Of a DNA stretch of 64,000 bases, positions 9,984-25,091 are shown piece after piece. How positions within the stretch are numbered: the first letter of the stretch is position 1; each line of letters opens with the position of its first letter. This stretch comes from an uncultured Prolixibacteraceae bacterium (lineage in GTDB: Bacteria > Bacteroidota > Bacteroidia > Bacteroidales > FEN-979), in assembly GCA_964616825.1 (NCBI GenBank), contig CAZTSX010000010.1, positions 525 to 64,524 on the forward strand, read 5' to 3'. The notes under the pieces are model-generated. The model did no database searches. It was not told the origin of the DNA and was given only the letters and a program-made list of their open reading frames with translations. Made by a program: the position numbers and the translations under genes.

Positions 9984-11158
9984 GGTCCGAATGCATATAA
10001 AGTTCCATCGTGTGCTCCTACGAGGATCATCCCGGAGGTAACTGCCGGTGTTGCTGTGATCTGGCTTCCGATTTCGTAAACCCAAACCTTTTTTCCACTA
10101 TCTAATTCCAGCAGGTGGAGCCTGCCATCGGAGGAGGCAACTACCACCAGGTTTTCGGCAATGACCGGAGAGGCATCTACTTTTCCCAACGCTTTGTATT
10201 TCCAGAGCAGCTCTCCTGTCTCAGCCTGGTAACAAAAGAGGTACCGGTTCTGGGATCCGATCACTACCCGATCCCCCTGAATAGCCGGTGAGGAGAGAAA
10301 AGGACCTCCTCCTCCCGTTTTCCATTGTATCTTTTTTTGTTTCAGGTCGGCACAATAGAACTCTCCGTCGTAGTTTCCAAACCAGGCTTTATCTCCGCGG
10401 GTCGCTGCCGATGAGGCGATGTAGGTTCCCAGGTCAATCGTGTCATCTGCCATTCCTGTTATCGTGTTTACCAGGTGCAGGTATCCGTCACAACCACCAA
10501 AAACAGCTATCTCCCCGCTGATGGCAGCTGCTCCGTTTATGAAGTTGTTTGATTCGTATTTCCACAATTCCGCCCCTGTGGTGGCATCTACCGCATGGAG
10601 GTTATAATCATAGCTCCCGGTCAATATCTCTTTCCGTTTTTTGTCGGCCGACCATGCCCAGTTGGAGGAGCCCGATATTTGCCCCTCTGTGGTGTATTTC
10701 CATTTTCGTTTTCCCGATTCAGCATCCAGGGCCCATAGGACACCTTCGAGTGTCCCTACGTAAATAGTCTGATCCAGATAGAGTGGAGCCGCTTCCACAG
10801 ATGTTCCCGCGTTGAATTGCCATTGCAACTTTCCATTAAGAGAGAGGGCATAGATAAATCCGTCGTCGGATCCAAAACAGATCAGTCCATCGCAAATCAC
10901 CGGGGAGGATTTGATGGCGCTATTGGCATGAAAGGTCCACAGAAGTTTCAGTGGTGGTTGTATCGAAACCGGCGACGTACCAGTAAGCTGTGGATCTCCC
11001 CTGAACGAAGGCCAACAGTCCGCGTTTTTGGTCTGAGCGAGACCTGCTCCGGCTGCGATAATATTCAGTAATAAAACACAGACTTGTACCGCAAAGGCGC
11101 TAAGCCGTAGAGCACGCCAATTATACCAAAAATTAACTGTTATTTCGTTTAATCTCAT
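9980..11158 (-). CDS. PQQ-binding-like (BamB-type) beta-propeller protein, exported
   Basis: Signal-like N-terminus, WPSFRG motif, repeated G...W docking repeats and SSP motifs. Start uncertain (ATG 11158 chosen; the ORF-track GTG at 11185 lies in a repeat array). Confidence 0.8.
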   Translation of the reverse strand: MRLNEITVNFWYNWRALRLSAFAVQVCVLLLNIIAAGAGLAQTKNADCWPSFRGDPQLTGTSPVSIQPPLKLLWTFHANSAIKSSPVICDGLICFGSDDGFIYALSLNGKLQWQFNAGTSVEAAPLYLDQTIYVGTLEGVLWALDAESGKRKWKYTTEGQISGSSNWAWSADKKRKEILTGSYDYNLHAVDATTGAELWKYESNNFINGAAAISGEIAVFGGCDGYLHLVNTITGMADDTIDLGTYIASSAATRGDKAWFGNYDGEFYCADLKQKKIQWKTGGGGPFLSSPAIQGDRVVIGSQNRYLFCYQAETGELLWKYKALGKVDASPVIAENLVVVASSDGRLHLLELDSGKKVWVYEIGSQITATPAVTSGMILVGAHDGTLYAFGP

Positions 11159-11181
11159 CACATTATTCCTTAATACAATAC

Positions 11182-11248
11182 TCACTTATTCACCATTTCA
11201 CCACCTCACCATTACTCACCAACTCACCAGTTCACCAGTTCACTAGTT
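11182..11248. repeat. Imperfect 8-bp tandem array (TCACCA core) containing the stop codon of the upstream Fe-S flavoprotein gene
   Basis: TCACCA-type cores at 11182, 11190, 11198, 11206, 11216, 11224, 11232 and 11240; TGG TGA at the end of 11224..12801 is one unit. Confidence 0.85.
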
Positions 11249-12801
11249 CTATCTGCCAACGCCCCGGTGGGACATCCCTCCACACAAGACTGCGCTGTTT
11301 TAACCAATCCTTCCTGCATGGTTTTACTGAAAGGCACTGTGATCCTTACGTCAAAACCTCTGCCAATATAAGCCAACCCCAATGTTTCTCCATCTTTTTG
11401 CGTGATCTCCACACACAATCCGCACCGGATACATTTTTCTGGCTCGTAGACCACCAGGTCATGTTGCAGGTTCCTTGTCAGCTGATTCCTTTCTGCTGCA
11501 TCAAACCGTCTCTTGTTAACCCCGTATTGATCGGAAAATCTCCTCAACTTACAACTTACCGGCTTGCGGCAGTCGCAATGCATGCACCGCTGGGCTTCTC
11601 GGATTGCCTCATCCTGAGTAAATCCGGTCAGGTATCCCGACCCGGGATCGGTTCTTTCCTCAAAAGAAGCCTCCTGCATATACTCTTTGTTCTCTTCCTC
11701 TTTTAGCGGGCCGATGGATGAATTGAACATCGGCGTTCTACGAGGGATTGTTTCCCCTGAAAGATAGGCATCAGCCTCGAGTGCAGCTTTTTTTCCCTGG
11801 GCTACCGATCTTACGGATAGCAGCTGTTCGGAGATGATGCTGCCACAACCAAACACACCCGGCTTGCCTGAAGCAAAACTTTTTTTATGGATGACCGATT
11901 CATATTCCAAAATCGGCAAGTCAAATTCATCTACGGGGTGCTCCTCGCTAAATCCGGTTGCCAGGATCACCGCATCGAACCCGGGGAGGATCTCCTTATC
12001 CCACTTCTTCCCGGTAACCGGATAGTTAAGCTGAAACTCGCCTCCAAGTGCGCGAATGGATTCGATATCGGCATCGAGCATTTCTTTGGGAAGAAGATCA
12101 TCAGGGATACGATAACGCAGCGCTCCTCCGGCCTGTTCGTTTTTATCAAAAAGCGTACAGGCGTGACCTTGCTGAAGAGTATAAAACGCCGCTGCCAGTC
12201 CGGCCGGACCGGTACCGATCACAGCTACCTGTTTTCCGCTTTTTTCTGAGACCACCTCCAGGCCGGTTTTCCGAATGGCTTCATCCTGTGCTGTATATCG
12301 TTTCAACAGACAGATCGAGACCGGCTCATCAACCTTTTTCCTGCGGCAGGCTTTTTCGCAGGGGGCCGGACAGATATATCCGAGTATCAGAGGGAGAGCG
12401 ATCTCTTCCCTGACTACCCGAAGCGCTTCTTCATTCCTGTTAGCGGTAATCAATCTGTTCATCAGGGGTATGTTCATGAAGGCCGGGCACGAGATACGGC
12501 AAGGGGCCTCGCAATCCCCAACATGATCGCTTAGGAGCAGCTCCAGAGCCTCTTTCCGTGCTTCCATCACCTCTTTGGCAGATGCTGAAAGATTCATTCC
12601 GTCTGCGACAGGCATAGCGCAGGAGGGGAACAGTGTGCCACGATCAAGATCCTTAACCAGGCATACCATGCAAGAGGGGTGGTTGGAGTGGCCCGGCAGG
12701 TAACAGAGAGAGGGAATTTCGATTCCCTTCAGTGCCGCAGCCTGCATGACGGTCATGCCCTGCTCCACTTCTATAGCTGTATGGTCAATCGTGATGTGCA
12801 T
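11224..12801 (-). CDS. Fe-S flavoprotein, StnC/NfnA/SfrB-like: 2Fe-2S domain, GltD-type Fe-S/FAD module and HydA/NuoG-type 4Fe-4S region; NAD(P)H domain apparently absent
   Basis: 2Fe-2S motif SLC..PSCMVC..PSC; GltD-type CEAPCRISCP and ICPAPCEKACRR; FAD motif IGTGPAG; CMHCDC..SC and CIRCGLC...CPTGAL. No second GGGxxA Rossmann motif. Confidence 0.82.
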   Translation of the reverse strand: MHITIDHTAIEVEQGMTVMQAAALKGIEIPSLCYLPGHSNHPSCMVCLVKDLDRGTLFPSCAMPVADGMNLSASAKEVMEARKEALELLLSDHVGDCEAPCRISCPAFMNIPLMNRLITANRNEEALRVVREEIALPLILGYICPAPCEKACRRKKVDEPVSICLLKRYTAQDEAIRKTGLEVVSEKSGKQVAVIGTGPAGLAAAFYTLQQGHACTLFDKNEQAGGALRYRIPDDLLPKEMLDADIESIRALGGEFQLNYPVTGKKWDKEILPGFDAVILATGFSEEHPVDEFDLPILEYESVIHKKSFASGKPGVFGCGSIISEQLLSVRSVAQGKKAALEADAYLSGETIPRRTPMFNSSIGPLKEEENKEYMQEASFEERTDPGSGYLTGFTQDEAIREAQRCMHCDCRKPVSCKLRRFSDQYGVNKRRFDAAERNQLTRNLQHDLVVYEPEKCIRCGLCVEITQKDGETLGLAYIGRGFDVRITVPFSKTMQEGLVKTAQSCVEGCPTGALADRTSELVNW

Positions 12802-12804
12802 GGG

Positions 12805-15162
12805 TTAACTGATCATAATCGCATCTTCCGGACATGCCTGGCGGCAGATGTCGCACTTGATACATTTTTCCTTATCGATAACATGTTTTTCAAAAGGTGT
12901 GTATTCGATTGCTTCCGATGGACAACGCTGGGCGCATTTGGTGCAACCGATACATTCGTCAGTAACAGAATAGCTGATCAACGGTGCACATTTTCCGGCG
13001 GGGCACTTACCCTGAAGATGAGCTTCATACTCTTCCCTGAAATAGGTCAGTGTCGATAACACGGGATTAGGGGCCGATTTGCCCAATCCGCATAAGCTGC
13101 CTCTTTTGGTGGATCCCGCCAGGTGTTCCAGGTTGTCGAGATCTTCAGGGACACCTTTTCCATTTCGGATCTTCTCCAGTAATTCCAGCATTCGTCTCGT
13201 TCCAATCCGGCAAAAGGTACATCTTCCACACGACTGGCTCTGGGTGAAGGATAAAAAATAGTAAGCGATATCCACCATACAGTCATCTTCTTCCAACACA
13301 ACCATTCCGCCCGATCCCATCATCGATCCAACTTCAATGAGGGCTTCGAAATCAACCGTCAGATCGGCCAGAGAGGCTGGGATACAACCTCCCGAGGGTC
13401 CTCCGATCTGCACTGCTTTGAAACTTTTCCCTTTAGCAATCCCGCCGCCAATCTCTTCGACAATCTGCCGGATGCTCATTCCCATCGGAACCTCGATTAA
13501 ACCGCCTCTGTTTATCTTGCCGGCCAGGGCAAAAACCTTGGTCCCTTTGCTATTATTTATTCCAATACGTGCAAATGCTTCCGCTCCATGCCGGATGATC
13601 CAGGATATGAACGCGAAGGTCTCCGTGTTGTTCACAAGCGTTGGCTTGCCGTTTAATCCTTTCAGGGCCGGATAGGGTGGCCTGATACGTGGCTGGCCAC
13701 GATTCCCTTCCACTGAAGCGATAAGAGCTGTCTCTTCCCCGCAAACAAACGCTCCGGCTCCCTCAAAAATCCGGATATGAAACGAGAAGCCGCTTCCCAG
13801 GATATTCTCTCCCAGGAATCCGGCATCAGAACATTTGGTGAGTGCTTCTTTCACCCGGCTCACAGCTAACGGGTATTCAGCCCGGATATAGAAGATCCCT
13901 TCTGTAGCTCCTGTTGCGAATCCCGCAACAGTCATCCCTTCGATGACGCGGTAGGGATAAGATTCCAGGATCATCCGGTCCATAAATGCGCCCGGATCTC
14001 CTTCGTCACCATTGCAAATGATTAATTTTGAGGAATCCTCCTGGTCTTTCACCAGCTGCCACTTCCTCCCTGTAGGGAATCCGGCGCCACCGCGACCACG
14101 AAGACCACTCGCAGAGATCACATCGATTACATCCTGCGGAGAAAGTTCCTTCAAACATCCGGACAGCGCTTCAAATCCTCCCGATCGCTTGTATTCTTCA
14201 AGGTCTGTTGGGCGTATTACTCCCCTGTTCTCTGTAGCAATATTCATTTGAGGACCAAGAAATTCTTCCACCGGAGTGCCACGTTCTTCAGCCTGGTATC
14301 GCCTGACCGATAGTGGAGATCCATCGTTAAGGATCTGCTCAAATAGTCCGATCACATCTAACTTCATCCGGTGAATGAGCCCTTCCGGTCTGAAATGGTT
14401 CAAGACTACCTCCTTCACCTCTTCAGGTTTGATCTTTGCATAATAAGCTACCGGCTCCCCGGATTTGACCACCTCCAGGACCGGTACCTGGTGACAGATC
14501 CCCACGCATCCTACCTGCTTCACCTCCACGTGGATACGGGCATCAGCCAGTGTCTTCTCCAGTTCTGATTTCACCTCTGAACTGCCACTGGCAATACAGC
14601 AGGATCCCAATCCGATCCGGATCTCACCCTGACCATTTGGCTCAGCCTGTTCTATGGGCAAATCATCCAATTTCCGGTTGGCTTTGTGAAGCAGGAAGTC
14701 CTGAAGGATCCCGCCTGCTTTTTCCGGTACCACCTGTCCGTAAGTGACCGAATCGATCCGTATCACGGGAGCAATGGTGCAACAACCCAGGCAGGCGACT
14801 TTGCTGATAGTAAAGAGACCCTGGCTATCGGTATCTTCCAATCCTGTAAGGTTCAACTCCCGGCGGAAAGCATCATAAACCTTTGAAGCTCCTTTCATAT
14901 GACAGGCTGTACCGGTACACACTTTGATGCTGTGCTTTCCGGCAGGCTGATGCCGGAACTGCCCGTAAAAAGTGGAGATGCCGGTGATACGTGAAGGGGT
15001 GATTTCAGTGGTGGCACATACCTTCTCAAGGGCCTCCTCAGGAAGGTAATTGAACTCTTCCTGGATCGCCTGTAAAATCGGGACTACCGCATCCACAGTT
15101 TTCCCGTGAACATCGACAATTCTCTCGACAATCTCGTTTATTTTATGTTCGGTTTCCGGCAC
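12805..15162 (-). CDS. NuoE-NuoF (HydC-HydB) fusion, NADH-binding FMN/Fe-S subunit of the electron-bifurcating type
   Basis: NuoE 2Fe-2S motif CTGTAC..CLGCC; thioredoxin-like Fe-S domain SCC..CVGIC; FMN motifs SGLRGRGGAGFPTG, NGDEGDPGAFMDR, GAGAFVCGEETAL; SCGRCTFC..LCGLG; H..CPAGKC; C-terminal 2x4Fe-4S. Confidence 0.9.
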   Translation of the reverse strand: MPETEHKINEIVERIVDVHGKTVDAVVPILQAIQEEFNYLPEEALEKVCATTEITPSRITGISTFYGQFRHQPAGKHSIKVCTGTACHMKGASKVYDAFRRELNLTGLEDTDSQGLFTISKVACLGCCTIAPVIRIDSVTYGQVVPEKAGGILQDFLLHKANRKLDDLPIEQAEPNGQGEIRIGLGSCCIASGSSEVKSELEKTLADARIHVEVKQVGCVGICHQVPVLEVVKSGEPVAYYAKIKPEEVKEVVLNHFRPEGLIHRMKLDVIGLFEQILNDGSPLSVRRYQAEERGTPVEEFLGPQMNIATENRGVIRPTDLEEYKRSGGFEALSGCLKELSPQDVIDVISASGLRGRGGAGFPTGRKWQLVKDQEDSSKLIICNGDEGDPGAFMDRMILESYPYRVIEGMTVAGFATGATEGIFYIRAEYPLAVSRVKEALTKCSDAGFLGENILGSGFSFHIRIFEGAGAFVCGEETALIASVEGNRGQPRIRPPYPALKGLNGKPTLVNNTETFAFISWIIRHGAEAFARIGINNSKGTKVFALAGKINRGGLIEVPMGMSIRQIVEEIGGGIAKGKSFKAVQIGGPSGGCIPASLADLTVDFEALIEVGSMMGSGGMVVLEEDDCMVDIAYYFLSFTQSQSCGRCTFCRIGTRRMLELLEKIRNGKGVPEDLDNLEHLAGSTKRGSLCGLGKSAPNPVLSTLTYFREEYEAHLQGKCPAGKCAPLISYSVTDECIGCTKCAQRCPSEAIEYTPFEKHVIDKEKCIKCDICRQACPEDAIMIS

Positions 15163-15239: not shown

Positions 15240-17069
15240 CTATTTCCCAATACAATACAAGTTATTATCTCCTCTGATATAAATTTTTCCACCGGCAAAC
15301 GCAGGTGTGCAAACAGATCCTTCTCCCAGTGGCGACTGCCCAACCGAGATAAAAACGCTGTCGGATTTGAATATATGCATGATTCCTTCTTTATCCATTT
15401 GATAGATCTTATCATACACCAATACAGGTGAGGCATATGTGCTGTTATCCAGTTCGTGGACCCAATACTCTTCTCCGGTTTTGGCATCGTAACAGACGAT
15501 CACGCCATAACTGGTAACCAGGAAGAGGTAGTTCTCATTCGCCACCGGGCTGGGGATATCAGAGAGGTAATCATTGAGCTCCCAGTCAACCTGAGGAGGA
15601 TTCCCTAATTTGATGGCAACCAGTTTAGCATATTCATTGGTGGCAAACAGATAGCCATTTGCATAAGCTGCTGAAGGTCCTACCTCTCCATAAATGCAAT
15701 CGATCTGCCAGCGTTCTTTTCCTGTAGCGGGATCATACGAAGCTACTATCGGGTCGGCTACAAGGATGAGCTCTGTTTGATTGCCGGTATTAACCAGGAT
15801 GGGTGAAGCCCATGATACCCGTACAGGTCGGGGGGTATTCCAGGCCAGTTCGCCCGTAGCACCGTCAAACGCTTTTACACTCGCGCCCTGTGATTGGTCC
15901 CATTGTACAATTATCAGGTTGCGGTACATGATGAGAGAGGAGGAGTGTCCGTAGTGATTCTTCGGTATGCCCAGGTTCTTTGACCATACCAGATTTCCTT
16001 CCAGATCCAGCGCCACCAGATCGCCGGTAGCGAAAATTGCATAAACACGACGACCATCGGTAGTCAGGGTTGGAGCAGCCAAACCCGTTTCCCCGTCTAC
16101 TTTCGGAACAGCTGCTGGTGTTCCCGGCACGGCAGAGACATCTGTCTGCCACAGGATCTTCCCTGAATTAGCATCAAAGCAATATATATCTCTTTTCGTA
16201 TCACTAGCCCCGGAAAGGAATACCCGGTCATTCCAGACAATCGGTGAATTATACCCGGGTAGGGGAACTTCAGTTTTCCATTTGATATTTGATCCGGTGG
16301 TACCGTTCCAGTTCACTGGAAAATTCTTCATGTTTACTACTCCGTTTCCATCAGGACCACGAAATGTCAACGCATTGTTGAGGATCTCCCGCCTCGAAGG
16401 AAATGACCTGGCTGGAGCTGACTTTACTGTTTCAGTGGAATCGGGATTCCCGGTTATGGCCGTTGTGGTGATCAGGCTGTCGGGTTCACTTTCAGGGATC
16501 GTTTCCGGGATAACTGGTTGGTTTGTTATCTTTTCCATCGAATCGACTTCCGCATGTGATATGGCTGTTTGATCACGAAGTGTTTTTCCGATCTCAGTGT
16601 AGGTGAGGTATGCCAGAATGAGAGAGCCAGCCACCAGAAATATCCCGGTATAGATGATCCATCGCTGGTTGGTTTTCCTGTGTTCCCAAAACCGATCTCT
16701 GACCGGTTCGGGAAGAGGCGGGATCTTCGGCCGGATCAGTTCGATCCATTTCATACAGATGATGATGATCAACACACATGCCAGGAGAATATATCCCCCC
16801 GTGCGGATCTGCCACCGACTGGTAAAGAACGCCTTGCGTGAAAGCAGATCGAGTTCGCGGATCTCGTTCCGGAGCGCTTCATCACCGGGGTTGCTCTTCA
16901 ACTTTTCCAGCATAATCGTCATCGCCGGTGTATTGAGCGGATCAACCCGTGTTACCTGGATGAAATTAGCAATGATCAGGATACACAGAATAAAAGCCAC
17001 GATCCCGCTGATGAGAGCGATTCGTCTCAGCAGTTGCATCGTCTGTTCTTTTGATGTCTCGTTTTCCAT
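15240..17069 (-). CDS. Membrane-anchored PQQ-binding-like beta-propeller protein
   Basis: Two N-terminal TM segments, Pro/Thr-rich linker, FRGPDG motif, W-docking repeats, YNSP/WASP/YASP motifs. Confidence 0.82.
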   Translation of the reverse strand: MENETSKEQTMQLLRRIALISGIVAFILCILIIANFIQVTRVDPLNTPAMTIMLEKLKSNPGDEALRNEIRELDLLSRKAFFTSRWQIRTGGYILLACVLIIIICMKWIELIRPKIPPLPEPVRDRFWEHRKTNQRWIIYTGIFLVAGSLILAYLTYTEIGKTLRDQTAISHAEVDSMEKITNQPVIPETIPESEPDSLITTTAITGNPDSTETVKSAPARSFPSRREILNNALTFRGPDGNGVVNMKNFPVNWNGTTGSNIKWKTEVPLPGYNSPIVWNDRVFLSGASDTKRDIYCFDANSGKILWQTDVSAVPGTPAAVPKVDGETGLAAPTLTTDGRRVYAIFATGDLVALDLEGNLVWSKNLGIPKNHYGHSSSLIMYRNLIIVQWDQSQGASVKAFDGATGELAWNTPRPVRVSWASPILVNTGNQTELILVADPIVASYDPATGKERWQIDCIYGEVGPSAAYANGYLFATNEYAKLVAIKLGNPPQVDWELNDYLSDIPSPVANENYLFLVTSYGVIVCYDAKTGEEYWVHELDNSTYASPVLVYDKIYQMDKEGIMHIFKSDSVFISVGQSPLGEGSVCTPAFAGGKIYIRGDNNLYCIGK

Positions 17070-17086: not shown

Positions 17087-18349
17087 TCATGATTTTATCG
17101 GACAATAATCAACACACCGGGCACAACTGAAGCAGGTACCCCGGTTGGGTTCAAAATCGGTTCGGTATCTGGTGATCAGGCGGCCAGCAAGCAATCCGCC
17201 AATGGTCAGCCCGATAAAACCTCCCAGGATCCACCCTCCGATGTAAAACTGACGGAGGATCCGTGATGCTTCATTATACAGTTCCTCTACCGACTTCCCG
17301 GAAGCTTTAAAGGCGGTCATCTCAATCGATTCAGGTTCTCCCTGTGTTTTTTCAGGGTGCAATAATTCATCTGCCATACGAACTTTTCCATTTACTTTAG
17401 CTAATGATTCATGAATCTGTGAGCCGGTCCATCCCCCAAGCAGCATGAAAAATGGGATCAGCAGCATGATCAGGATAAACTTTCTGACGACCGTTTTCCG
17501 GTTTTCCGGGTTCTTCACTGTGACCGGTTTTTCGATCGATTCGTAGGGACAGGAGTCTTCGCACAACCGGCATTCGACACAAATCGATGGAGTGATCGTC
17601 ATGTGGTATTTCGAAAAGCGGCTGATCCAGTTCAGCAATACGCCATAAGGGCATAGGAATCGACAGTATGGCCGGGCAATGAAGACCCCGCAAAGAAGCA
17701 ATATTCCACCGAAGATGAACATGCTAAAAAGAGCATCAAATCGAAAAATCCCTACAAATGGATCGTATCGGCAGATGATGAAGTCGGTTGCGGTAGCTGC
17801 ATATAACACAGCCAGTCCAAGGTAGATGTAAGGGATTACACCAAGCACAGCATTCAACCGGGTTCCAATTTTTTGAGGGCGCCAGGAGACGAGGTCCTGA
17901 AACGCTCCGAATGGACAAACACCCGCACAAAATGTTCTTCCAAAGAGAAGTGTATAGACCAGGGGTGCCAGGAAGAAAACGAGAACCGTCCACGGAATCA
18001 CATATGAACCGGCGAAGATAGCCAGGGCCACATTCTGGATGGATCCAATCGAACAGACACATCCTTCCCGGTAAAATCCGAAATAGGCCAGGGAGAAGAT
18101 AGAGATCCAGAAGACCATGTTGCGGGATCGACGTTTCAACACAGCCCAGGTAACCACAGAGAGTGCCAGCAACAGAATAGCTACATCCATCACCTCCAGG
18201 ATCTCTGCACGTGGAGTAGGGAGGAGTGTTTCGGGTGTAATGTATCCCGATTCAAATTCCGGTTTTGGAAATCGCTGGATCGCATAGGAGGAGACCATTT
18301 GCCAGGCAAACAGGATGGTCAGAACAACTAATGCAATCCCTTTTTTCAT
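17087..18349 (-). CDS. Membrane-bound 4Fe-4S-binding protein (NapH/MauN/RdxA/NosR-C-like)
   Basis: Multiple TM helices; GRTFCAGVCPFG and RPYCRFLCPYG (CxxxCP pairs); CVECRLCEDSCP and C-terminal CFSCARCVDYCP ferredoxin motifs. Confidence 0.85.
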   Translation of the reverse strand: MKKGIALVVLTILFAWQMVSSYAIQRFPKPEFESGYITPETLLPTPRAEILEVMDVAILLLALSVVTWAVLKRRSRNMVFWISIFSLAYFGFYREGCVCSIGSIQNVALAIFAGSYVIPWTVLVFFLAPLVYTLLFGRTFCAGVCPFGAFQDLVSWRPQKIGTRLNAVLGVIPYIYLGLAVLYAATATDFIICRYDPFVGIFRFDALFSMFIFGGILLLCGVFIARPYCRFLCPYGVLLNWISRFSKYHMTITPSICVECRLCEDSCPYESIEKPVTVKNPENRKTVVRKFILIMLLIPFFMLLGGWTGSQIHESLAKVNGKVRMADELLHPEKTQGEPESIEMTAFKASGKSVEELYNEASRILRQFYIGGWILGGFIGLTIGGLLAGRLITRYRTDFEPNRGTCFSCARCVDYCPIKS

Positions 18350-18364
18350 GCCGGATTAATCCTC

Positions 18365-18952
18365 CTATTTGATGTCTAAGTTTTTCTGTCCGAATCCCTT
18401 CAGAAGGTATGGTTGATCTGCCGGTATCCGCGAATATGCTTCTGACGGACAGTTGCGGGCAACGGAACATTCGTTGCAGTTGTCACACCTGTCTTGCCTT
18501 ACCTGCAGCTGTAGTGAGCCATTTCCGAAGGCACCACATCCTTTAACGCATTTTCCGCATCCGATACAGATCTCCTCATCAATTGTATATTCAAAAAATG
18601 GATCCTCAATAAATGTGCGTTTGATTGCTTTAGTTGGACAAAGCTGGTTTTCAGCCCCTGTATTGAGTGTTTTGGTATCAGGGAGGAAATAGCCACCACA
18701 GAGATCACAATAACCGCACATAGCATAGACATGGACACATTTAACCGCCGATGGAGTCTTGATGCAGCTGGTGGCACAACGGCCACACTGGGTGCATTTG
18801 GTGGGATCAAGCTGCCAGACATATTCACTGGATCCTGCTTTCTTTGCTGCCAGTACTGCAATTCCGCCGATGCTGATCAGCAATCCGGCCTGAGCTCCGG
18901 TTTGGAAGAATTTGCGCCGGTTGATCCGTTTCTCCTCTCCCTTGCCATCCAT
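18365..18952 (-). CDS. Tat-exported polyferredoxin (NapG/MauM/NrfC-like, about four 4Fe-4S)
   Basis: NRRKFF twin-arginine motif plus hydrophobic stretch; CTQCGRCATSC, CGYCDLC, LCP, CIGCGKCVKGC, CDNCNEC..CP. Start placed at ATG 18952, just after the upstream stop. Confidence 0.82.
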   Translation of the reverse strand: MDGKGEEKRINRRKFFQTGAQAGLLISIGGIAVLAAKKAGSSEYVWQLDPTKCTQCGRCATSCIKTPSAVKCVHVYAMCGYCDLCGGYFLPDTKTLNTGAENQLCPTKAIKRTFIEDPFFEYTIDEEICIGCGKCVKGCGAFGNGSLQLQVRQDRCDNCNECSVARNCPSEAYSRIPADQPYLLKGFGQKNLDIK

Positions 18953-18953
18953 A

Positions 18954-19199
18954 TTATTGAGTCTCCTGTTTTTGTTGTTCATATTTCCGGTAAGATTTGG
19001 CTGCCGGTAATCCACATTGTTCTGTTTTCCCACAGAGGGTACATGTAAAGTCAAGGGTACATGCCTCCGCAGGTTCTTCTTTTAAAAGCAGGTATCCGCC
19101 CGTGACAGCTAATCCGGTTCCAATGGCTCCCCGCATCAGCAGGGAGAAGAACTTACGCCTGGATTGCTTCACACCCTTATTACCTGGTCTATCTTTCAT
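18954..19199 (-). CDS. Small twin-arginine, Cys4 protein (C-x5-C-x2-C-x5-C)
   Basis: 81 aa; SRRKFF plus TM helix, then CTLDFTCTLCGKTEQC; fills the gap between two operon genes exactly. Confidence 0.72.
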   Translation of the reverse strand: MKDRPGNKGVKQSRRKFFSLLMRGAIGTGLAVTGGYLLLKEEPAEACTLDFTCTLCGKTEQCGLPAAKSYRKYEQQKQETQ

Positions 19200-20175
19200 T
19201 GCTATCCTCTCCTTTTTTAATGAAAATCCTGATTTGATTCCGCCAGGGGTCGAGGACCAGGATCCTCTCCTCTGAATCTACTGCCAGGTCAAGTCCTCTC
19301 GTTCCCTGGTCAAACTGATCGGGTGCAGCTACCAGGCATTTGAACTCTCCCGATGGATGAAAGACTTTCACATGTTCAATTCCCTTTTCACTGGTTACGA
19401 ACGAACCATCAGAAAGCATGGCAAAATTTGAGGGATTACAACATCCGCAAAAGCCTTCCACTCCCGTGGAGGTCTCACCCCAGGTGGAGATCAATGAGCC
19501 ATCGGGACGGAATGCCTCAAACAGGTGTCGTCCGGAGTTGACCACCCACAGTTCGTCATCGCGGCCGATTCCCAGGTCAAAATATGGACTGGGGATCACA
19601 AATCTAGGAATCCCTTTCAGGGAATCCTTTTTTCCGATCAGGTTCAGTAATGTCCCATCACGGTCATAGTGGTAAACAATCTTTTTGCCGGCATCGGCGA
19701 CAAAGATATCGGTTCCGTTTGTGGCTATACTGGTCAGAACAGATGCATCACTCTCCGGTTTCCACCGGTTGATGATCTCTCCTTCCGGATTCATGATCTC
19801 AATGTGGTCAATCATACCCAGCAGGAGGTTCCCATTCGGCGCAACCGCAATACAATATGCTGTATCAGGAAAAGGGAGTTCCGATATTTTCTCTCCGTCA
19901 TGGCTATAGATCTCTACTCCGTTTGCACCAGCTACATAGATCCGATTATCAGTATCTGCGGCTATCCCGTAGATCTCTGATAATCCGGCTGGAAAATGCT
20001 TTATTTCGCGGTATTCGATAAGCGATGTATCACTTTTCCGAAGTTCATTCAATCCTAAATCAAATGGATTATCGCTGGCACCTGATTCAGAGTAAAAGAG
20101 ATCAACCACCAGGTATCCGATTCCTGCTATCAGGAGGATCAGGGCGGTAATAATGATTAATCGTTGTTTCATCAT
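19189..20175 (-). CDS. NHL-repeat beta-propeller protein, membrane-anchored or exported
   Basis: N-terminal hydrophobic anchor; NHL-like repeats (GIAAD, IFVADAG, LAVDSEERILVLDP..QIRIF); FCGCCNP motif. Start at MMKQRL (20175) gives an ATGA overlap. Confidence 0.8.
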   Translation of the reverse strand: MMKQRLIIITALILLIAGIGYLVVDLFYSESGASDNPFDLGLNELRKSDTSLIEYREIKHFPAGLSEIYGIAADTDNRIYVAGANGVEIYSHDGEKISELPFPDTAYCIAVAPNGNLLLGMIDHIEIMNPEGEIINRWKPESDASVLTSIATNGTDIFVADAGKKIVYHYDRDGTLLNLIGKKDSLKGIPRFVIPSPYFDLGIGRDDELWVVNSGRHLFEAFRPDGSLISTWGETSTGVEGFCGCCNPSNFAMLSDGSFVTSEKGIEHVKVFHPSGEFKCLVAAPDQFDQGTRGLDLAVDSEERILVLDPWRNQIRIFIKKGEDSNER

Positions 20176-21608
20176 TCTGCTTTGATGTTTATGCAAACAA
20201 GTTGTTTTGAATCCCTCATCAGCAGGTACCCTCCGGTAATCGCAATCGGTCCCCACGAATCCTGTCCGTCAATGATTTGAGCACGGTCGAGTATGGTAAA
20301 GCGATTTGTTGAAAGTTTCGCAATAGTCATCTCGCCATCGTCATTAAGGATGAAGAATTTACCATCGGCGATGATGTAAGGCCCCATGCCAAACCGGTCT
20401 GTTTTTCCGCTCCTCATCACCACTTCCGTGCAATCGTCGGGGTGAAAACAGACAAATTCATTCCGTAATCCCCCGGCATCTTTTGGCATAATGCCAAAGA
20501 GGTGTCCATTGGAGTAGATCGGGGTTTGTTGCTCAGAAGCCAATCCTTTAGCTGGTTTATATTTCTGAATGATCCCGGCTGAGAATTTTCCGTTTTGTTC
20601 GTTCACTTGCATCACAACTCCACCATATCCGTACCCGGCTGTGAGGAAGATCCTTCCCTGATCCATGATCACCGGCGATGGAGCCACAACCGTTGGAGAG
20701 AACTCCAGGCTCTCCCATAAGATCTCGCCCTGATCCGCTCCTTCGGCAGAGATCCCGCAGACACCTCCTACCGCAGGATAGATGTACATCTTTTTCCCGT
20801 TGAACTGCATGGGCATCACCGATGCATGAGACATCTTCCAACCGTTGGGATTTGGTGTTTTCCAGGCAATGTTCCCTGTTTTGCAATCCACTCCGATCAT
20901 AAGGGATGATCCTCCCACGGCTATGATAGCCGTGTCGTCAACGATCAACGGGCACTGGCCTGTATACCAGAACGGAATTTCTGTTCCGAACTCCTTTTCA
21001 AGGTCTATTCCCCATAGAAAGTCGCCGGATTGCCTGTCCACACACATCACCTGGCACCGTGGACCGATGGTGACCACATATTTGTCGGTTACAGCGGGGA
21101 TTGTCCGGGATAGCCCGTGGTTTCGTTTCAGGTGGACACGATACGAACGACGCCATAACTCCTCTCCTGTTTCCAGGGAGAGACAACGTAAAGCATCCTG
21201 TTTTCTGACTTCATCGTAATCGAGCAGGTAGATCAGACCATCGTATACTGCCGGTGCGGCGTGACCTTCACCCAATTCCAGCGTCCAGAGGATATCCGGA
21301 CCGGAAGGTCCCCATGAGTCAATCAAATGAATTTGTTCTTTGCTGATGTTATCGAGATCGGCTCCACGGAATCGTGGCCATCGGGTACCCGGAACAGGTT
21401 CAACATCACCACCAAATGAGAAAAACTCACCGATATTGACAATTTCCAGTGCCCGGGAAGAATCTACGGTCCGGTTATCCATGCCAGGCGCCGCTATCGA
21501 CAACGATTTCACCGGGTTGTGTGAAAACCACCAGGAAACTACTCCAACAGCAAGAACAACAACTACATACGGAATGTATTTAACTATGTGCTTTTTTGTA
21601 ATTGTCAC
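20172..21608 (-). CDS. PQQ-binding-like beta-propeller protein with N-terminal TM anchor
   Basis: WPRFRG motif, GHAAP, W-docking repeats, SWGP..GG.L.MRD C-terminus; GTG start. Confidence 0.82.
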   Translation of the reverse strand: MTITKKHIVKYIPYVVVVLAVGVVSWWFSHNPVKSLSIAAPGMDNRTVDSSRALEIVNIGEFFSFGGDVEPVPGTRWPRFRGADLDNISKEQIHLIDSWGPSGPDILWTLELGEGHAAPAVYDGLIYLLDYDEVRKQDALRCLSLETGEELWRRSYRVHLKRNHGLSRTIPAVTDKYVVTIGPRCQVMCVDRQSGDFLWGIDLEKEFGTEIPFWYTGQCPLIVDDTAIIAVGGSSLMIGVDCKTGNIAWKTPNPNGWKMSHASVMPMQFNGKKMYIYPAVGGVCGISAEGADQGEILWESLEFSPTVVAPSPVIMDQGRIFLTAGYGYGGVVMQVNEQNGKFSAGIIQKYKPAKGLASEQQTPIYSNGHLFGIMPKDAGGLRNEFVCFHPDDCTEVVMRSGKTDRFGMGPYIIADGKFFILNDDGEMTIAKLSTNRFTILDRAQIIDGQDSWGPIAITGGYLLMRDSKQLVCINIKAE

Positions 21609-21612
21609 CTCG

Positions 21613-21620
21613 CAAAGATA
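21613..21620 (-). promoter_or_regulatory. Bacteroidota sigma-A -7 element (TATCTTTG) upstream of the 21608 gene
   Basis: The reverse complement of 21613-21620 matches TAnnTTTG, in the only sizeable gap (about 200 bp) in the cluster. Confidence 0.55.
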
Positions 21621-21812
21621 ACTGCTTTTGCTTAGTTTTCTTTGATATTATAGGCCATTAGTGTATCGCCATCAATTAAAAACGATTCTGAAAATCCATA
21701 AAATACCTGGCTTCCGTGAAGGTCTTCAAGCATATCCAATGACCATACTATCTCCCTGTTGCCGGCATGAAAACAGGTAATTTTCCCGGGCCCTGTCCTA
21801 GCCAACTTTTCA

Positions 21813-23111
21813 TCAATCCGGTTCTCGGATATTGAATGCCATCAGGACTTCACCATGCCGGACATATAAAATACCGTCGTTGATCACGGGATGCGACCAG
21901 TGGGGGCCGTTCCCTTCTGTAATTTGAAAGCTACTCAGGGGTTCAAATGTTGCCGGATCCGTATTTACCAGAGCCAGGTTCCCATTCTTCTCTTCATAGC
22001 AGTAGAGCATACCATCGGCGAAGATGATGGATCCTTTATTGTGCCATTCTGTTTCATAGGCGGGCTCTCCTGTCTCCCAGTCGATGCAGCACCAGTTCCC
22101 GCTTCGGTTATTGATCCAGTTTGCCCCATAGATATATCCATCCACCAGGACAACTCCCCCATGATGGGTGTCAAGCGTATGATCTGTCCACAGCAGCTCA
22201 ATCTCTGATCCATCTTCAGAGATGGCGAACATAGCGCCTACGTGGTTGTATCCGCTTGTAATATACAATTTGCCATCACGGTACAGGGGTGTGTTGATGT
22301 TGATCTTTGGTGAGTTGATCCATACCTCTTTGCATGCATCGGAATCTGTTTCGTAATAATTATGTTTCCAGATAATTGTTCCATCACTGGCATCCACTCC
22401 GATCAGGTAATTGGCCAGGAAGGTCACAATGATTTTCTTTCCTCCACGTTCGATCAGCAAGGGTGATACATAACCGCTGGTATCCGTGATGCTCTTCGAA
22501 GCCCAGATGGTCTCGCCGGTTATTTTATCCATTGCTACCATGGTTGTTTCTGTGCCGGCAGGGGTATAGATCACTTTATCGTCTGTGATCAGCAGGGATT
22601 CACAAATGCCCCAAACTCCCCATGCGGCATTGAATTTTTTTTCTGCATCGAAGGTCCAGTTAACAGAACCGTTGCTTGCATCTATACATGCGATGGTACC
22701 AGCTCCGCTCAGGACATAGATGCGATCTTCCTCGATTGTGGGGGTTGTTCGCGTTTCAGGGAAGGATTTCTGCCAGGATCTGCCAAAAGGTACTTTCCGG
22801 AGGATTTCGCCCTGCTTTGTCAATTTGATTAAATAATCGGTTGAATCCTGCATGCCCGTAACAAAGATCGCATCATCTGCAATGGCTGTAGAGGAGAAAC
22901 CTTTACCAATACCATCGACCGACCAGATAAGTGCAGGTCCTTCATCGGGCCACGTAGAGAGCAGGTTGGTATCTGTATAGATTCCATTTCGTTCAGGCCC
23001 ACGCCATTGAGCTACGTTCTGGGTGTTGACTGTATATCCAATAAAAAGTAATACAATCAGAAAAGTAATCGGCTTGCAGGTGAGTATCCATTTATACCTT
23101 TGCTGTTTCAT
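21813..23111 (-). CDS. PQQ-binding-like beta-propeller protein, exported
   Basis: Signal-like N-terminus, AQWRGP motif, W-docking repeats, HWSHPVI..G.LYVRHG C-terminus; start at MKQQRY chosen to avoid overlap. Confidence 0.82.
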   Translation of the reverse strand: MKQQRYKWILTCKPITFLIVLLFIGYTVNTQNVAQWRGPERNGIYTDTNLLSTWPDEGPALIWSVDGIGKGFSSTAIADDAIFVTGMQDSTDYLIKLTKQGEILRKVPFGRSWQKSFPETRTTPTIEEDRIYVLSGAGTIACIDASNGSVNWTFDAEKKFNAAWGVWGICESLLITDDKVIYTPAGTETTMVAMDKITGETIWASKSITDTSGYVSPLLIERGGKKIIVTFLANYLIGVDASDGTIIWKHNYYETDSDACKEVWINSPKININTPLYRDGKLYITSGYNHVGAMFAISEDGSEIELLWTDHTLDTHHGGVVLVDGYIYGANWINNRSGNWCCIDWETGEPAYETEWHNKGSIIFADGMLYCYEEKNGNLALVNTDPATFEPLSSFQITEGNGPHWSHPVINDGILYVRHGEVLMAFNIREPD

Positions 23112-23118
23112 CGATGAG

Positions 23119-24336
23119 TTATCTTTTTTGGATATCATATACCATCAGGGCATCTCCGTGTCGGATAAAGAGCTTTCCATCAGCAATTACCGGGTGTGCC
23201 CAATGGTGGTCCTCACCATAGGGAACCTCAAATGAACTCACTTTATTATACCCGGAGGTTGTTGGTTTCACCAGTACAACTTCACCACTGTCATTATAAC
23301 AATAAAGCATTCCATCGGCATAGATGACCACCCCTCTGCCCATCATATCCACTTCACCGATATCCAGTCCGGTTTTCCAGTCAACACAGAACCACCCTTC
23401 ATTCGAATCGTCTGATCCATAGATCCGATCTCCAAGCACCACAAATCCGCCCATCCGGTTGTCGATTGAAATATTACGCCACATCTCCTGCTTGACTGAG
23501 CCATCGGCTGAAAGTTTTAGCTGGATTCCTCCTTTACCGTACCCGGATACACAGTAAAGATAACCATCCCTGTAATAGGGTGTGTTGGCATGGACCGACC
23601 ATCTGTTGGTTTGTGGATGTGACCAGAGCAGTTTCCCGTCATTCGCGTCAATACCCATAATGGAATTAGCTGTCTGGGTTACAAGGAGTTTTCGCTTTGG
23701 CAGTTTTACCAGCAGAGGTGAGCAATAGGCACTTACTTCTGATTTTCCCTCACCAGACCAGATCAGTTCGCCGGTATTTCGGTTAAGTGCAATCACGTTA
23801 TTTTTTTTACCTCCCGGAGCGCAGAAGAGGATATCTCCATCGATCAGCAGATTTTCAGTGACACCCCATTTGATATTACGTCCGTCGTAATCCTTAAACA
23901 GGTCAACCTCCCAGAGTTTTTTCCCGTTTGCAGCATCCATACAAAAGATCTTGCCGAAAGCACTCATCATATATAATTTACCATCTACATATAGTGGAGT
24001 GCTTCGGGTCCCTGGCCAGCTTGCGACCCAATCAGGACCATAAGGAACTTTCCACTGCAGTTCTCCTTCCGGTGAAAAACAAAAGATATATCCTGTCTCC
24101 TCCAGTGTTCCGGCAGTATAAATCTTGTCTTCCGTTACTACTGCAGAGGCATGGCCCTGACCCAGGCCATCAATATGCCAAAGAAGGGTGGGGCCTGCTT
24201 CAGGCCAAGATTTCAGGAGGCCGGTTGCCGGGTATTTTCCATTGCGGTGAGGGCCGCGCCACTGGACAATTTCCTGTGTCATCAACTCTCCGCTGAAGAT
24301 CAGTATACAAAGGATCAATGAAAAAATTCTGCTCAT
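23119..24336 (-). CDS. PQQ-binding-like beta-propeller protein, exported (tandem paralog of the 21813 gene)
   Basis: Signal peptide, VQWRGP, RSTP, HWAHPVI..G.LFIRHG; collinear similarity to the neighbouring gene. Confidence 0.84.
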   Translation of the reverse strand: MSRIFSLILCILIFSGELMTQEIVQWRGPHRNGKYPATGLLKSWPEAGPTLLWHIDGLGQGHASAVVTEDKIYTAGTLEETGYIFCFSPEGELQWKVPYGPDWVASWPGTRSTPLYVDGKLYMMSAFGKIFCMDAANGKKLWEVDLFKDYDGRNIKWGVTENLLIDGDILFCAPGGKKNNVIALNRNTGELIWSGEGKSEVSAYCSPLLVKLPKRKLLVTQTANSIMGIDANDGKLLWSHPQTNRWSVHANTPYYRDGYLYCVSGYGKGGIQLKLSADGSVKQEMWRNISIDNRMGGFVVLGDRIYGSDDSNEGWFCVDWKTGLDIGEVDMMGRGVVIYADGMLYCYNDSGEVVLVKPTTSGYNKVSSFEVPYGEDHHWAHPVIADGKLFIRHGDALMVYDIQKR

Positions 24337-24360: not shown

Positions 24361-25059
24361 TTATTTGTTCTTTTTTGAGAAACTGATTTGGTCCAGAGGC
24401 AGGGTATATCCAACATCTATCCCAACGCAAATCGTTTTCCCCACGACGTAAGAATCCCGCAAGACATCGCTCAATCCCTGGAAGTAATTTATTTTCGCAA
24501 AGAAGGTTCCGGGACCTAAACGATAGGTTGCTCCTGCCTCCACAGCAATGGAGAAATCAACCACGTTGAACCGGGCAAACGGAGTCATTGAATCGCGGGC
24601 CCGGTAAGGGGCCTGTTCGGCGATATTCAGGTATCCTACAGCAAAATCGACCTTCGGGCCAACACCGGCAAAGATTCCGAATTTACTCTCACGGAATTGA
24701 TAATGGTATTTCAACAGGAATGACCATCCTATGTAATGCTGGTTGGCTTTATAGGAGAAATAATCGTTCAGTGTATCAACGAAAGTGATATTCGAGATTC
24801 CCATCTCCTGATAATGCAATCCTGTTGAGATATAAAACTGGCTCCCAATATCCAAATCGATTGAGAGGGAAGCGTGAAATGAGCTTCTGTTCGGTTTTAG
24901 AGTGACGTAATCGAGGAGATAATAGTTATAATCAGGGCGCTTATATTCAGCTACGCTTGTATGGGTGAACAGGTATCCTGCTGCAAGACTGAAGCTATTC
25001 TGGCCCTGAAGGGTTCCCAGCGAAAAAACCATGATCAACACAAATAGGAGTTTCTTCAT
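24361..25059 (-). CDS. Outer-membrane beta-barrel protein (porin/PorT-like)
   Basis: Signal peptide MKKLLFV..., alternating aromatic beta-strand pattern, about 230 aa. Confidence 0.68.
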   Translation of the reverse strand: MKKLLFVLIMVFSLGTLQGQNSFSLAAGYLFTHTSVAEYKRPDYNYYLLDYVTLKPNRSSFHASLSIDLDIGSQFYISTGLHYQEMGISNITFVDTLNDYFSYKANQHYIGWSFLLKYHYQFRESKFGIFAGVGPKVDFAVGYLNIAEQAPYRARDSMTPFARFNVVDFSIAVEAGATYRLGPGTFFAKINYFQGLSDVLRDSYVVGKTICVGIDVGYTLPLDQISFSKKNK

Positions 25060-25083
25060 TTCATTAAAATTAAAGTCCGAATG

Positions 25084-25091
25084 CAAAAATA
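25084..25091 (-). promoter_or_regulatory. Bacteroidota -7 element (TATTTTTG) for the minus-strand cluster
   Basis: TAnnTTTG match about 25 nt upstream of the barrel gene ATG. Confidence 0.5.

Follow-up and report, generated by a model that had tools for sequence, protein, structure and literature searches.

What does an 81-codon gene wedged between a beta-propeller gene and a ferredoxin gene contribute to a large, conserved operon? The question is raised by a 64,000-nucleotide stretch of contig CAZTSX010000010.1 (positions 525 to 64,524) from an uncultured Prolixibacteraceae bacterium, called here the window. In this stretch a small gene on the minus strand lies between the gene of an NHL propeller and that of a NapG-like polyferredoxin, itself followed by the gene of a NapH-like membrane protein. 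The original prediction, made from the sequence alone, had taken its product for a minimal electron carrier or assembly subunit exported by the twin-arginine translocation (Tat) pathway. We consider the chances about even that the small protein serves, probably with a bound Fe-S cluster, as a subunit of a NapG/NapH-like module for electron transfer across the membrane. The parts of the small gene are the following, with the type of evidence in brackets.

18954..19199, minus strand: small gene, 81 aa plus stop, encoding a predicted Tat-signal-anchored mini-protein with four Cys, or Cys4 mini-protein (open reading frame [ORF], homologues, selection, frame conservation)
19146..19163, minus strand: twin-arginine motif SRRKFF, residues 13-18 (sequence and family conservation)
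19083..19145, minus strand: h-region and predicted single transmembrane (TM) helix, residues 19-39, Gly/Thr-rich, followed by Lys40 (AlphaFold2 [AF2] and family statistics)
19014..19061, minus strand: C-x5-C-x2-C-x5-C loop CTLDFTCTLCGKTEQC, with C47, C53, C56 and C62, predicted metal or Fe-S site (invariant columns)
18957..19013, minus strand: GLPAA and basic C-terminal helix, residues 63-81, with a short linker instead in fused forms (AF2, fusion junctions)
19206..19212, minus strand: predicted Shine-Dalgarno-like element GGAGAGG, 7 nt upstream of the small-gene ATG and within the 3' end of the NHL gene (read from the sequence)

The small gene and its family

The small gene starts with an ATG at position 19199 and ends with a stop codon at 18954-18956. 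Its product is MKDRPGNKGVKQSRRKFFSLLMRGAIGTGLAVTGGYLLLKEEPAEACTLDFTCTLCGKTEQCGLPAAKSYRKYEQQKQETQ, of which EEPAEACTLDFTCTLCGK is an example of a tryptic peptide. In agreement with the original description, this protein has SRRKFF and then a helix, here found to be weakly hydrophobic, ahead of a C-x5-C-x2-C-x5-C motif; the start of its gene overlaps the 3' end of the NHL gene by 11 nt (NHL stop at 19189-19191), a single nucleotide separates its stop from the ferredoxin ATG at 18952, and RRKFF is common to the small protein and the ferredoxin, which carries NRRKFF. Among the approximately 128,000 residues of the six-frame translation of the window, the four-Cys motif occurs once, and the small protein is the window's only combination of [ST]RRxF[FLI] with a hydrophobic stretch. 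Scans for Rfam families, DNA repeats, promoters and terminators found nothing competing or relevant on either strand.

The 81-codon ORF is almost certainly a real gene. A word-indexed search identified 14 close homologues, 58-99% identical and all 60-90 aa long, in which C47, C53, C56 and C62 and the pattern LxFTCTLCxKxxQCxLPAAxSxRxY are invariant. A profile search against 1.84 billion cluster representatives returned 182 proteins at E ≤ 1e-3, nearly all of 55-110 aa, each of them representing a cluster at 50% identity. Between orthologous DNA loci of the small gene, the proportion of synonymous differences (pS) is 0.56-0.98, that is saturated, versus 0.09-0.5 for nonsynonymous differences (pN), and dN/dS is 0.06-0.35 where dS could be estimated, as expected under purifying selection. 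The sense frame alone is free of stop codons in 13 of 13 orthologous loci, the other five frames being interrupted in nearly all of them; two antisense ORFs on the plus strand, 18731-19048 and 18997-19275, were dismissed on this ground.

Could the ORF nevertheless be spurious, or a remnant in decay after the 5' end of the ferredoxin gene was partly duplicated? The small protein does resemble the N-terminal 60 residues of the ferredoxin and has no family annotation. For practical purposes, this explanation is already refuted by the number of homologous clusters, the invariant Cys, the purifying selection and the conservation of the sense frame alone, and the family is moreover kept across genomes of 33% to 72% GC; we give it next to no credence.

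The gene had been thought likely to have escaped annotation. However, the exact protein of the window is already present in the gene calls of NCBI, JGI, ENA and Logan, on 30 contigs, and the gene is thus unnamed rather than missed. Homologues in metagenome-assembled genomes (MAGs) of Bacteroidia and Bacteroidales are labelled 'hypothetical protein'. With the close alignment of the family as query, a scan of genome collections recovered only six MAG loci. The sole hint of expression is a 151-nt metatranscriptome contig from seawater (run X21) at 19209-19359, in the 3' end of the NHL gene, which may reflect DNA carry-over.

Among 166 small members of the family, the four-Cys motif is found in 164, with the exact 5-2-5 spacing in 154, and 145 have exactly four Cys. 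R[RK]xF is located near the N-terminus in 151, with 32-37 residues between the two arginines and the first Cys, and LP follows the fourth Cys in 118. An alignment of 149 sequences has a mean column identity of 18%; full invariance is limited to the four Cys columns, and conservation exceeds 90% at R14 and F17. By profile comparison the small protein is outside any described family; our literature search brought up no publication about this protein or its operon. A ribosomally synthesized and post-translationally modified peptide precursor was also considered and dismissed, the operon being without modifying enzymes.

The small gene is tied to the ferredoxin by adjacency or fusion

With which of its neighbours is the small gene associated? 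We classified 96 related loci, 80 of which are metagenome loci retrieved with an alignment of the ferredoxin and represent the best matches to this ferredoxin rather than an unbiased sample. According to the state of the Cys4 module, they are distributed as follows.

76 of 96 loci: separate gene directly upstream of the ferredoxin gene (3 cut by a contig end)
12 of 96 loci: fused to the N-terminus of the ferredoxin
7 of 96 loci: absent
1 of 96 loci: state not assigned

In the split loci, no more than a few nucleotides separate the stop of the small gene from the ferredoxin start. Both the Cys and the position of the gene are conserved in the homologous clusters, where the original prediction would have failed had either the ORF or its Cys been lost. 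The order small gene, ferredoxin, NapH-like protein holds at identities as low as 33-47%, and also in L007 and L008, whose NHL gene is either absent or beyond the range covered; this designates the ferredoxin/NapH-like pair as the constant partner.

Locus L016, on a 1.68-Mb contig and with a NapH-like protein 66% identical to that of the window, has no separate small gene; it encodes instead a 212-aa ferredoxin whose residues 1-63 match the hidden Markov model (HMM) of the small protein (E = 4e-22) and whose Fer4 matches begin at residue 67. In the 12 fused loci, the ferredoxin lacks a signal of its own: the module stands there instead and is followed directly by 'VWQLDPxKC...' ('VWQLDPTKC...' in L016), with which mature unfused ferredoxins begin, the Cys4 segment being the sole export signal of the 4x[4Fe-4S] ferredoxin. 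Locus L060 (contig Ga0364867_10119, 3811-5697) carries a 628-aa ORF made of the Cys4 module, the ferredoxin and the NapH-like protein, with the last junction located where the signal peptide of the NapH-like protein would normally end; this triple fusion is a single observation and a possible assembly error.

The fusions indicate that the N-terminus of the small protein can act as the export signal of a multi-cluster ferredoxin. They place the Cys loop on the ferredoxin's side of the membrane, approximately 12 residues ahead of the first cluster motif, and imply that the module is exported with the ferredoxin, adjacent to its first Fe-S cluster, in a 1:1 association. The small protein is very probably a physical partner of the ferredoxin/NapH-like pair. 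The subunit or carrier first proposed fits the gene fusions, with the correction that the small protein looks like an N-terminal accessory module of the ferredoxin and not like a free-standing minimal carrier. The seven loci without the module are natural 'deletion mutants' for it; in four of them (L024, L031, L040 and L084), the ferredoxin has its own signal and nothing is found upstream.

Where might the module come from? At a cutoff of E ≤ 1e-3, the listed matches of the small-family HMM to the N-terminal ~55 residues of the neighbouring unfused ferredoxin cover 12 of the 15 loci searched (E from 1e-6 to 1e-3); for the ferredoxin of the window, a relaxed rerun gave E = 0.0037. An hhalign comparison of 46 small proteins with eight unfused ferredoxins gave a probability of 95.8% (E = 7e-9) over 58 columns. 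The aligned region comprises RRxF, a conserved Arg 9-10 residues further on, the h-region and 'LDxxxCxxCG'; C53, C56 and C62 correspond to Cys I, II and IV of the ferredoxin, and C47 to a ferredoxin Trp. The window protein has no Fer4-type Pfam match, and its C-x5-C-x2-C-x5-C motif differs from the CxxCxxCxxxCP of ferredoxins by the replacement of the third Cys. From these alignments, the Cys4 module is likely a duplicate of the ferredoxin signal and first half-motif that has lost the third Cys and acquired another one further upstream. As part of the hhalign score comes from the similarity of the Tat signals, this paralogy is likely but not proven. An hhalign probability of 99.8% obtained between alignments A3 and A4 was discarded as inflated, since A4 held a fused protein and A3 probably held long members running into the ferredoxin body.

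Targeting and a candidate cofactor

How would such a protein reach the membrane? Its n-region agrees with the Tat consensus [ST]-R-R-x-F-L-K, with SRRKFF in the window and RRxF[ILF]K in the family. Statistics on the 149 sequences give a Gly/Thr-rich h-region with an uncharged stretch of median length 16 aa and a mean Kyte-Doolittle value of 1.77, and a K or R stands directly behind it in every member listed. Low hydrophobicity and following positive charges are reported to make a TM segment Tat-dependent rather than Sec-dependent (PMC5449189), and the h-region of the small family, with its following basic residue, matches these published features. The Tat signal looks genuine, judging from the more than 90% conservation of RRxF in the 149 sequences, from weak matches to TIGR02811 in 9 of 46 members (via the signal region) and to TIGR01409 in 4 of 46, and from its use as the sole ferredoxin signal in the 12 fused loci. 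The net charge, +3.3 on the N side of the helix versus +0.5 in the 7-residue linker after it, favours an N-in/C-out orientation. In this predicted topology, 42 aa after the helix would be extracytoplasmic, and not approximately 35 as first estimated. We think it highly likely, from these sequence features, that the small protein is Tat-targeted with its N-terminus in and its C-terminus out. AF2 modelling reached a mean predicted local distance difference test score (pLDDT) of 54.6 with 15 sequences and 71.6 with 149; with the larger set it predicts a helix at residues 14-39 (pLDDT 81-93) and a C-terminal helix at 65-80.

If the signal were cleaved, the product would be a soluble, one-cluster periplasmic mini-carrier of approximately 35-40 aa, moving between the ferredoxin and the beta-propellers, which corresponds to the minimal electron carrier of the original prediction. 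The window protein has an AEA just before Cys47 that could be an AxA site, a loose small-x-small pattern is present close to where the h-region ends in 87 of the 149 members, and high-potential iron-sulphur proteins (HiPIPs) provide a precedent for small Tat-exported carriers with a single cluster. However, just 14 of the 149 members have a strict AxA, and close orthologues show KES, EET, EEF or EEN instead of a conserved site; both observations favour an uncleaved signal anchor. The fusions, for their part, show a loop built for the N-terminus of a ferredoxin and not for diffusion. The Cys spacing of HiPIPs differs from that of the small protein, and neither the window protein nor the 46 members have a HiPIP match in Pfam. 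A cleaved, diffusing carrier appears very improbable.

What would an anchored loop with four Cys bind? The small protein probably binds some metal, as its Cys pattern suggests, and we would put no more than even money on a redox-active Fe-S relay. An Fe-S cluster is favoured by the four invariant Cys with their fixed spacing, by the likely descent from a ferredoxin Fe-S motif, and by the retention of the RR motif in a stand-alone polypeptide, which a domain maturing outside the cell would not need. It is also favoured by precedents of compact Cys loops. The N-domain of Escherichia coli RseC, which carries CX5CX2CX5C, could be reconstituted with an O2-sensitive, [4Fe-4S]-like cluster that absorbs at 420 nm (PMC11729352). 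Adrenodoxin-type [2Fe-2S] proteins contain C-x5-C-x2-C, and this loop is the best match of the small protein in a PDB profile search, although with an E value of 0.71 the alignment is not significant and serves as a lead only. In Endonuclease III, four Cys within 17 residues, as in MutY, ligate a [4Fe-4S] cluster; the E. coli Nth sequence reads C-x6-C-x2-C-x5-C. This last precedent differs from the small protein by one more residue in the first spacer, an unrelated fold, the cytoplasmic location of a DNA glycosylase and the absence of any profile or PDB match.

Several results weigh against a redox-active subunit. The expression evidence amounts to one 151-nt contig lying beside the small gene and not covering it, and the loci that were compared were selected by their ferredoxin. 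Profile searches of the PDB gave nothing significant, and a Pfam/NCBIfam scan of the window protein and 46 relatives found no family, only weak Tat-signal matches; the curated Tat model TIGR01409 does not match the window protein at E ≤ 1 in NCBIfam. The Tat signal could simply have been inherited from the ferredoxin, without reporting a cofactor. The pLDDT of the Cys loop is approximately 55 even with 149 sequences, with no defined fold. Finally, the module is absent from 7 of the 95 classifiable loci, which implies that electrons do not strictly need it on their path, and three of these loci (L035, L061 and L079) keep an anchor similar to that of the small protein ('NRRQF..R....GGLAL.SG.LLFR') with a Cys-free, Gly-rich linker in place of the loop.

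Could the small protein then be a non-redox anchor or docking peptide, whose four Cys bind Zn or form two disulfides and which tethers or orients the ferredoxin on the NapH-like protein? The three loci with a Cys-free linker and the four more without any module would suit such a role, as would the absence of a defined fold and the weak Zn-ribbon-type Pfam matches of 2 of the 46 members. The canonical CxxCxxC is degenerate, and with the third ancestral Cys lost the loop could have turned purely structural. Yet a Zn or disulfide knuckle could pass through Sec or YidC and mature outside the cytoplasm, whereas RRxF is kept in more than 90% of the 149 sequences. The four Cys and their spacing are also far more constrained than the rest of the protein, and the identical motif of RseC takes up an Fe-S cluster in vitro. 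We consider a purely structural role rather unlikely; if the loop were just a Zn or disulfide knuckle, the finding would shrink to an unannotated anchor subunit.

The resemblance to RseC raises a further alternative, that of a maturation or assembly factor, comparable to NqrM or to the proposed roles of RseC, that gives Fe or an Fe-S cluster to the ferredoxin or to the NapH-like protein, or escorts its client through Tat. NqrM is likewise a small, single-pass, four-Cys protein. The CX5CX2CX5C motif is common to the small protein and to RseC, an accessory of Rsx/Rnf, and the module is dispensable in some loci. The covalent fusion to a mature ferredoxin in 12 loci, in one of them also to the NapH-like protein, implies however a permanent 1:1 association. 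Moreover, the Cys loop would be periplasmic according to the predicted topology, and the periplasm is no known site of Fe-S assembly. Neither the NqrM nor the RseC family is matched in Pfam: PF04400 (NqrM) gave no match for the window protein and the 46 members, and PF04246 (RseC/MucC) none at E ≤ 1 for the window protein nor at E ≤ 0.1 for the members. A match to PF12669 (FeoB-associated Cys-rich protein) was found in 1 of the 46 (E = 0.025). An assembly factor seems improbable, although somewhat less so than a cleaved carrier.

Is the small protein a relative of RseC? The two share an identical motif (C20, C26, C29 and C35 in E. coli RseC), with the four Cys in register by hhalign, and RseC, too, resides in the membrane, as a companion of an Fe-S electron-transfer complex located there (the SoxR-reducing system, Rnf). 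There is nevertheless no detectable homology, hhalign giving a probability of 2.6% (P = 0.017) against a single RseC sequence rather than a full profile. The motif precedes two TM helices in RseC and follows one helix in the small protein; it is cytoplasmic in RseC and predicted to be periplasmic here. Its first Cys is variable in RseC, for which the family motif reads CX2CX5C, and invariant in the small family, and RseC is genetically linked to Rnf/Rsx, whereas the neighbours of the small gene are NapH-like and NapG-like. Homology to RseC was therefore dismissed, the match not being significant despite the register of the Cys.

The fused forms share with RnfB/RsxB the layout of a membrane helix followed by a small Cys-rich module and a polyferredoxin. 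In RnfB, a membrane-proximal cluster passes electrons to the membrane subunit, and by analogy the layout of the fused forms suggests a membrane-proximal cluster that would hand electrons to a membrane subunit. RnfB/RsxB differs by the absence of sequence similarity (hhalign probability of 0.6%), a cytoplasmic location, the lack of a Tat signal and a C-x2-C-x4-C... spacing. The small protein further resembles the members of TIGR02811, 'formate dehydrogenase region TAT target', in having 60-90 aa, a twin-arginine signal and a gene beside those of redox enzymes. It differs from them in that no formate dehydrogenase is encoded nearby, the C-terminal motif of TIGR02811 is absent and the window protein is not matched by the model.

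The operon and its place among NapGH-like systems

From approximately 25.1 kb down to approximately 10 kb, all genes are on the minus strand. The genes around the small gene, in the direction of transcription and with their evidence in brackets, are the following.

24361-25086, minus strand: OMP_b-brl_2 outer-membrane barrel (Pfam, synteny)
23119-24336, 21813-23138 and 20172-21608, minus strand: three PQQ_2 propellers (Pfam, synteny)
19189..20175, minus strand: NHL/SGL beta-propeller with an N-terminal TM anchor, probable start at M28 of the listed ORF (Pfam NHL, synteny)
18365..18952, minus strand: Tat-signal polyferredoxin (NapG-like), 195 aa, 17 Cys, four [4Fe-4S]-type motif groups (Pfam Fer4)
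17087..18349, minus strand: NapH/NosR-like polytopic Fe-S membrane protein, 420 aa (PF12801 at 1e-15)
15240-17069, minus strand: TM-anchored PQQ_2 propeller (Pfam)
12805-15162, minus strand: NuoE/NuoF-type (NuoE-NuoF-ferredoxin) fusion, 785 aa (Pfam)
11224-12801, minus strand: 2Fe-2S and GltD/NfnB-like flavoprotein, 525 aa (Pfam)
9980-11185, minus strand: further PQQ_2 propeller (Pfam)

The partners of the small protein resemble NapG/NapH, as well as NosG/NosH, MauM/MauN and the NapH-like systems of PMC8238504, in being a periplasmic Tat ferredoxin with 4x[4Fe-4S] motifs and a polytopic PF12801 protein, here with two CX3CP and two CxxCxxCxxxCP motifs. Their scores are however far under the cutoffs of the NCBIfam equivalog or subfamily models (14.6 vs 269 for NapG, NF007012; 46.6 vs 234 for NapH, NF007013; 52.1 vs 213 for TIGR02163), and we therefore call them NapGH-like and not NapGH; the weak matches of the ferredoxin to NapG, DmsB and DsrO are likewise below cutoffs. 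We know of no third, small Cys4 subunit described for NapGH. The operon further differs by having neither a nitrate reductase, nor an N2O reductase, nor the flavin mononucleotide (FMN)-binding domain typical of many NapH-like systems (PMC8238504), and by the presence of the NuoEF/GltD-like module and of PQQ_2 and NHL propellers. Natural NapH-NapG fusions exist, for example in MLMS-1 (PMC5449189); the order in L060, NapG-like before NapH-like, is the reverse.

In the mechanism that we infer, as regards Tat export, non-cleavage, metal identity, redox role and the direction of electron flow, translational coupling within the operon would produce the small protein, and an Fe-S cluster, with [4Fe-4S] as the leading guess, would be loaded in the cytoplasm before Tat export. 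Tat would then insert the protein, and its weakly hydrophobic h-region, probably uncleaved, would stay as a single N-in/C-out anchor, so placing the Cys loop, some seven residues past the helix, at the periplasmic surface of the membrane. The small protein would sit beside the NapH-like protein and touch the N-terminal cluster of the polyferredoxin, tethering the ferredoxin next to the NapH-like protein and lengthening its chain of Fe-S clusters in the direction of the membrane. Taken together, the products of the operon would carry electrons between the cytoplasm, with its NuoEF/GltD-like NAD(P)H module, and the PQQ_2 and NHL propellers of the periplasm.

In its boldest form, which we offer as a speculation with the balance clearly against it, the Cys4 mini-protein, with a fifth Fe-S cluster at the membrane surface, could be the transfer point of an envelope electron conduit that dispenses with cytochromes and flavins and is widespread in Bacteroidota. 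Electrons would pass from the NuoEF/GltD-like, possibly bifurcating, NAD(P)H module to the NapH-like protein, the Cys4 cluster, the 4x[4Fe-4S] ferredoxin and finally the PQQ_2 propellers and an NHL propeller bearing a GFCGCCNP motif, powering an undescribed periplasmic redox chemistry. NapH-like systems are very common and for the most part have no assigned function (PMC8238504). The small family would add a defined component at the interface where NapH/NosR-type proteins pass electrons across the membrane to an outer acceptor. This component is a domain of approximately 40 residues, among them the four invariant Cys, that would be interposed between membrane and periplasmic polyferredoxin, and its natural split and fused versions suit biochemical and structural work. 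If the proposal holds, the small protein would be among the smallest cofactor-bearing Tat substrates. The large conserved operon, with at least 7934 NapH-like homologues at E ≤ 1e-20 and occurrences in marine, freshwater and sediment metagenomes, may matter more than the peptide.

Among the 120 NapH-like homologues listed, all those with a taxon label belong to Bacteroidota. The related loci span 33-72% GC, and some of them are thus probably outside typical Bacteroidales. The window's own genome is present in marine and seawater metagenomes. The gene order of the window recurs on contigs whose small protein is only 33-77% identical, and the downstream order is the same in L001-L004 and L016.

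Some features of the neighbouring proteins are conserved as well. An invariant GFCGCCNP, with three Cys in four residues, is found in the NHL propeller (19432-19455, minus strand), and every one of the 29 related loci in which a full-length NHL ORF was in range has it; such a sequence might form an unusual metal or redox site in the periplasm, and the operon's chemistry could conceivably take place there. The NapH-like protein contains a conserved YREGC[VI]CS[IV]G between predicted helices (18044-18073, minus strand), present in most related loci, with 13 ORFs not matching. A manual reading of the topology makes this motif periplasmic, and thus a possible counterpart, on the membrane side, for the Cys4 loop. 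Four clusters require 16 Cys, and the ferredoxin carries one more, C72 in 'SAVKC'; most loci conserve this 17th Cys, and a few have Val or Arg in its place. A role of C72 as an inter-subunit ligand was dismissed, as its presence does not correlate with the split or fused state.

The NuoE-NuoF-ferredoxin fusion and the 2Fe-2S/GltD-like flavoprotein (11224-15162) resemble, in their architecture, NuoF-type electron-bifurcating or transhydrogenase modules (HydBC or Stn-like); these genes adjoin that of a membrane NapH-like protein and not of a hydrogenase. The five PQQ_2/BamB-like propeller paralogues (9980-11185, 15240-17069 and 20172-24336, minus strand) have Sec-type signals or TM anchors, and an N-terminal 'QWRGPxRNG' motif is common to two of them. 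All score below the cutoffs of PQQ dehydrogenases and are thus probably not quinoproteins.

Mobile or selfish genes are found within the operon at four places.

L004, 10207-10668
L004, 12852-13205
L016, 11384-11737
L016, 5799-6435

Among such insertions, an IS200-type Y1 transposase gene separates the small gene from the ferredoxin gene in L004, 23S_rRNA_IVP (four-helix-bundle) genes lie behind the NapH-like gene in L004 and L016, and a HepT/MNT toxin-antitoxin pair is located among the propeller genes in L016.

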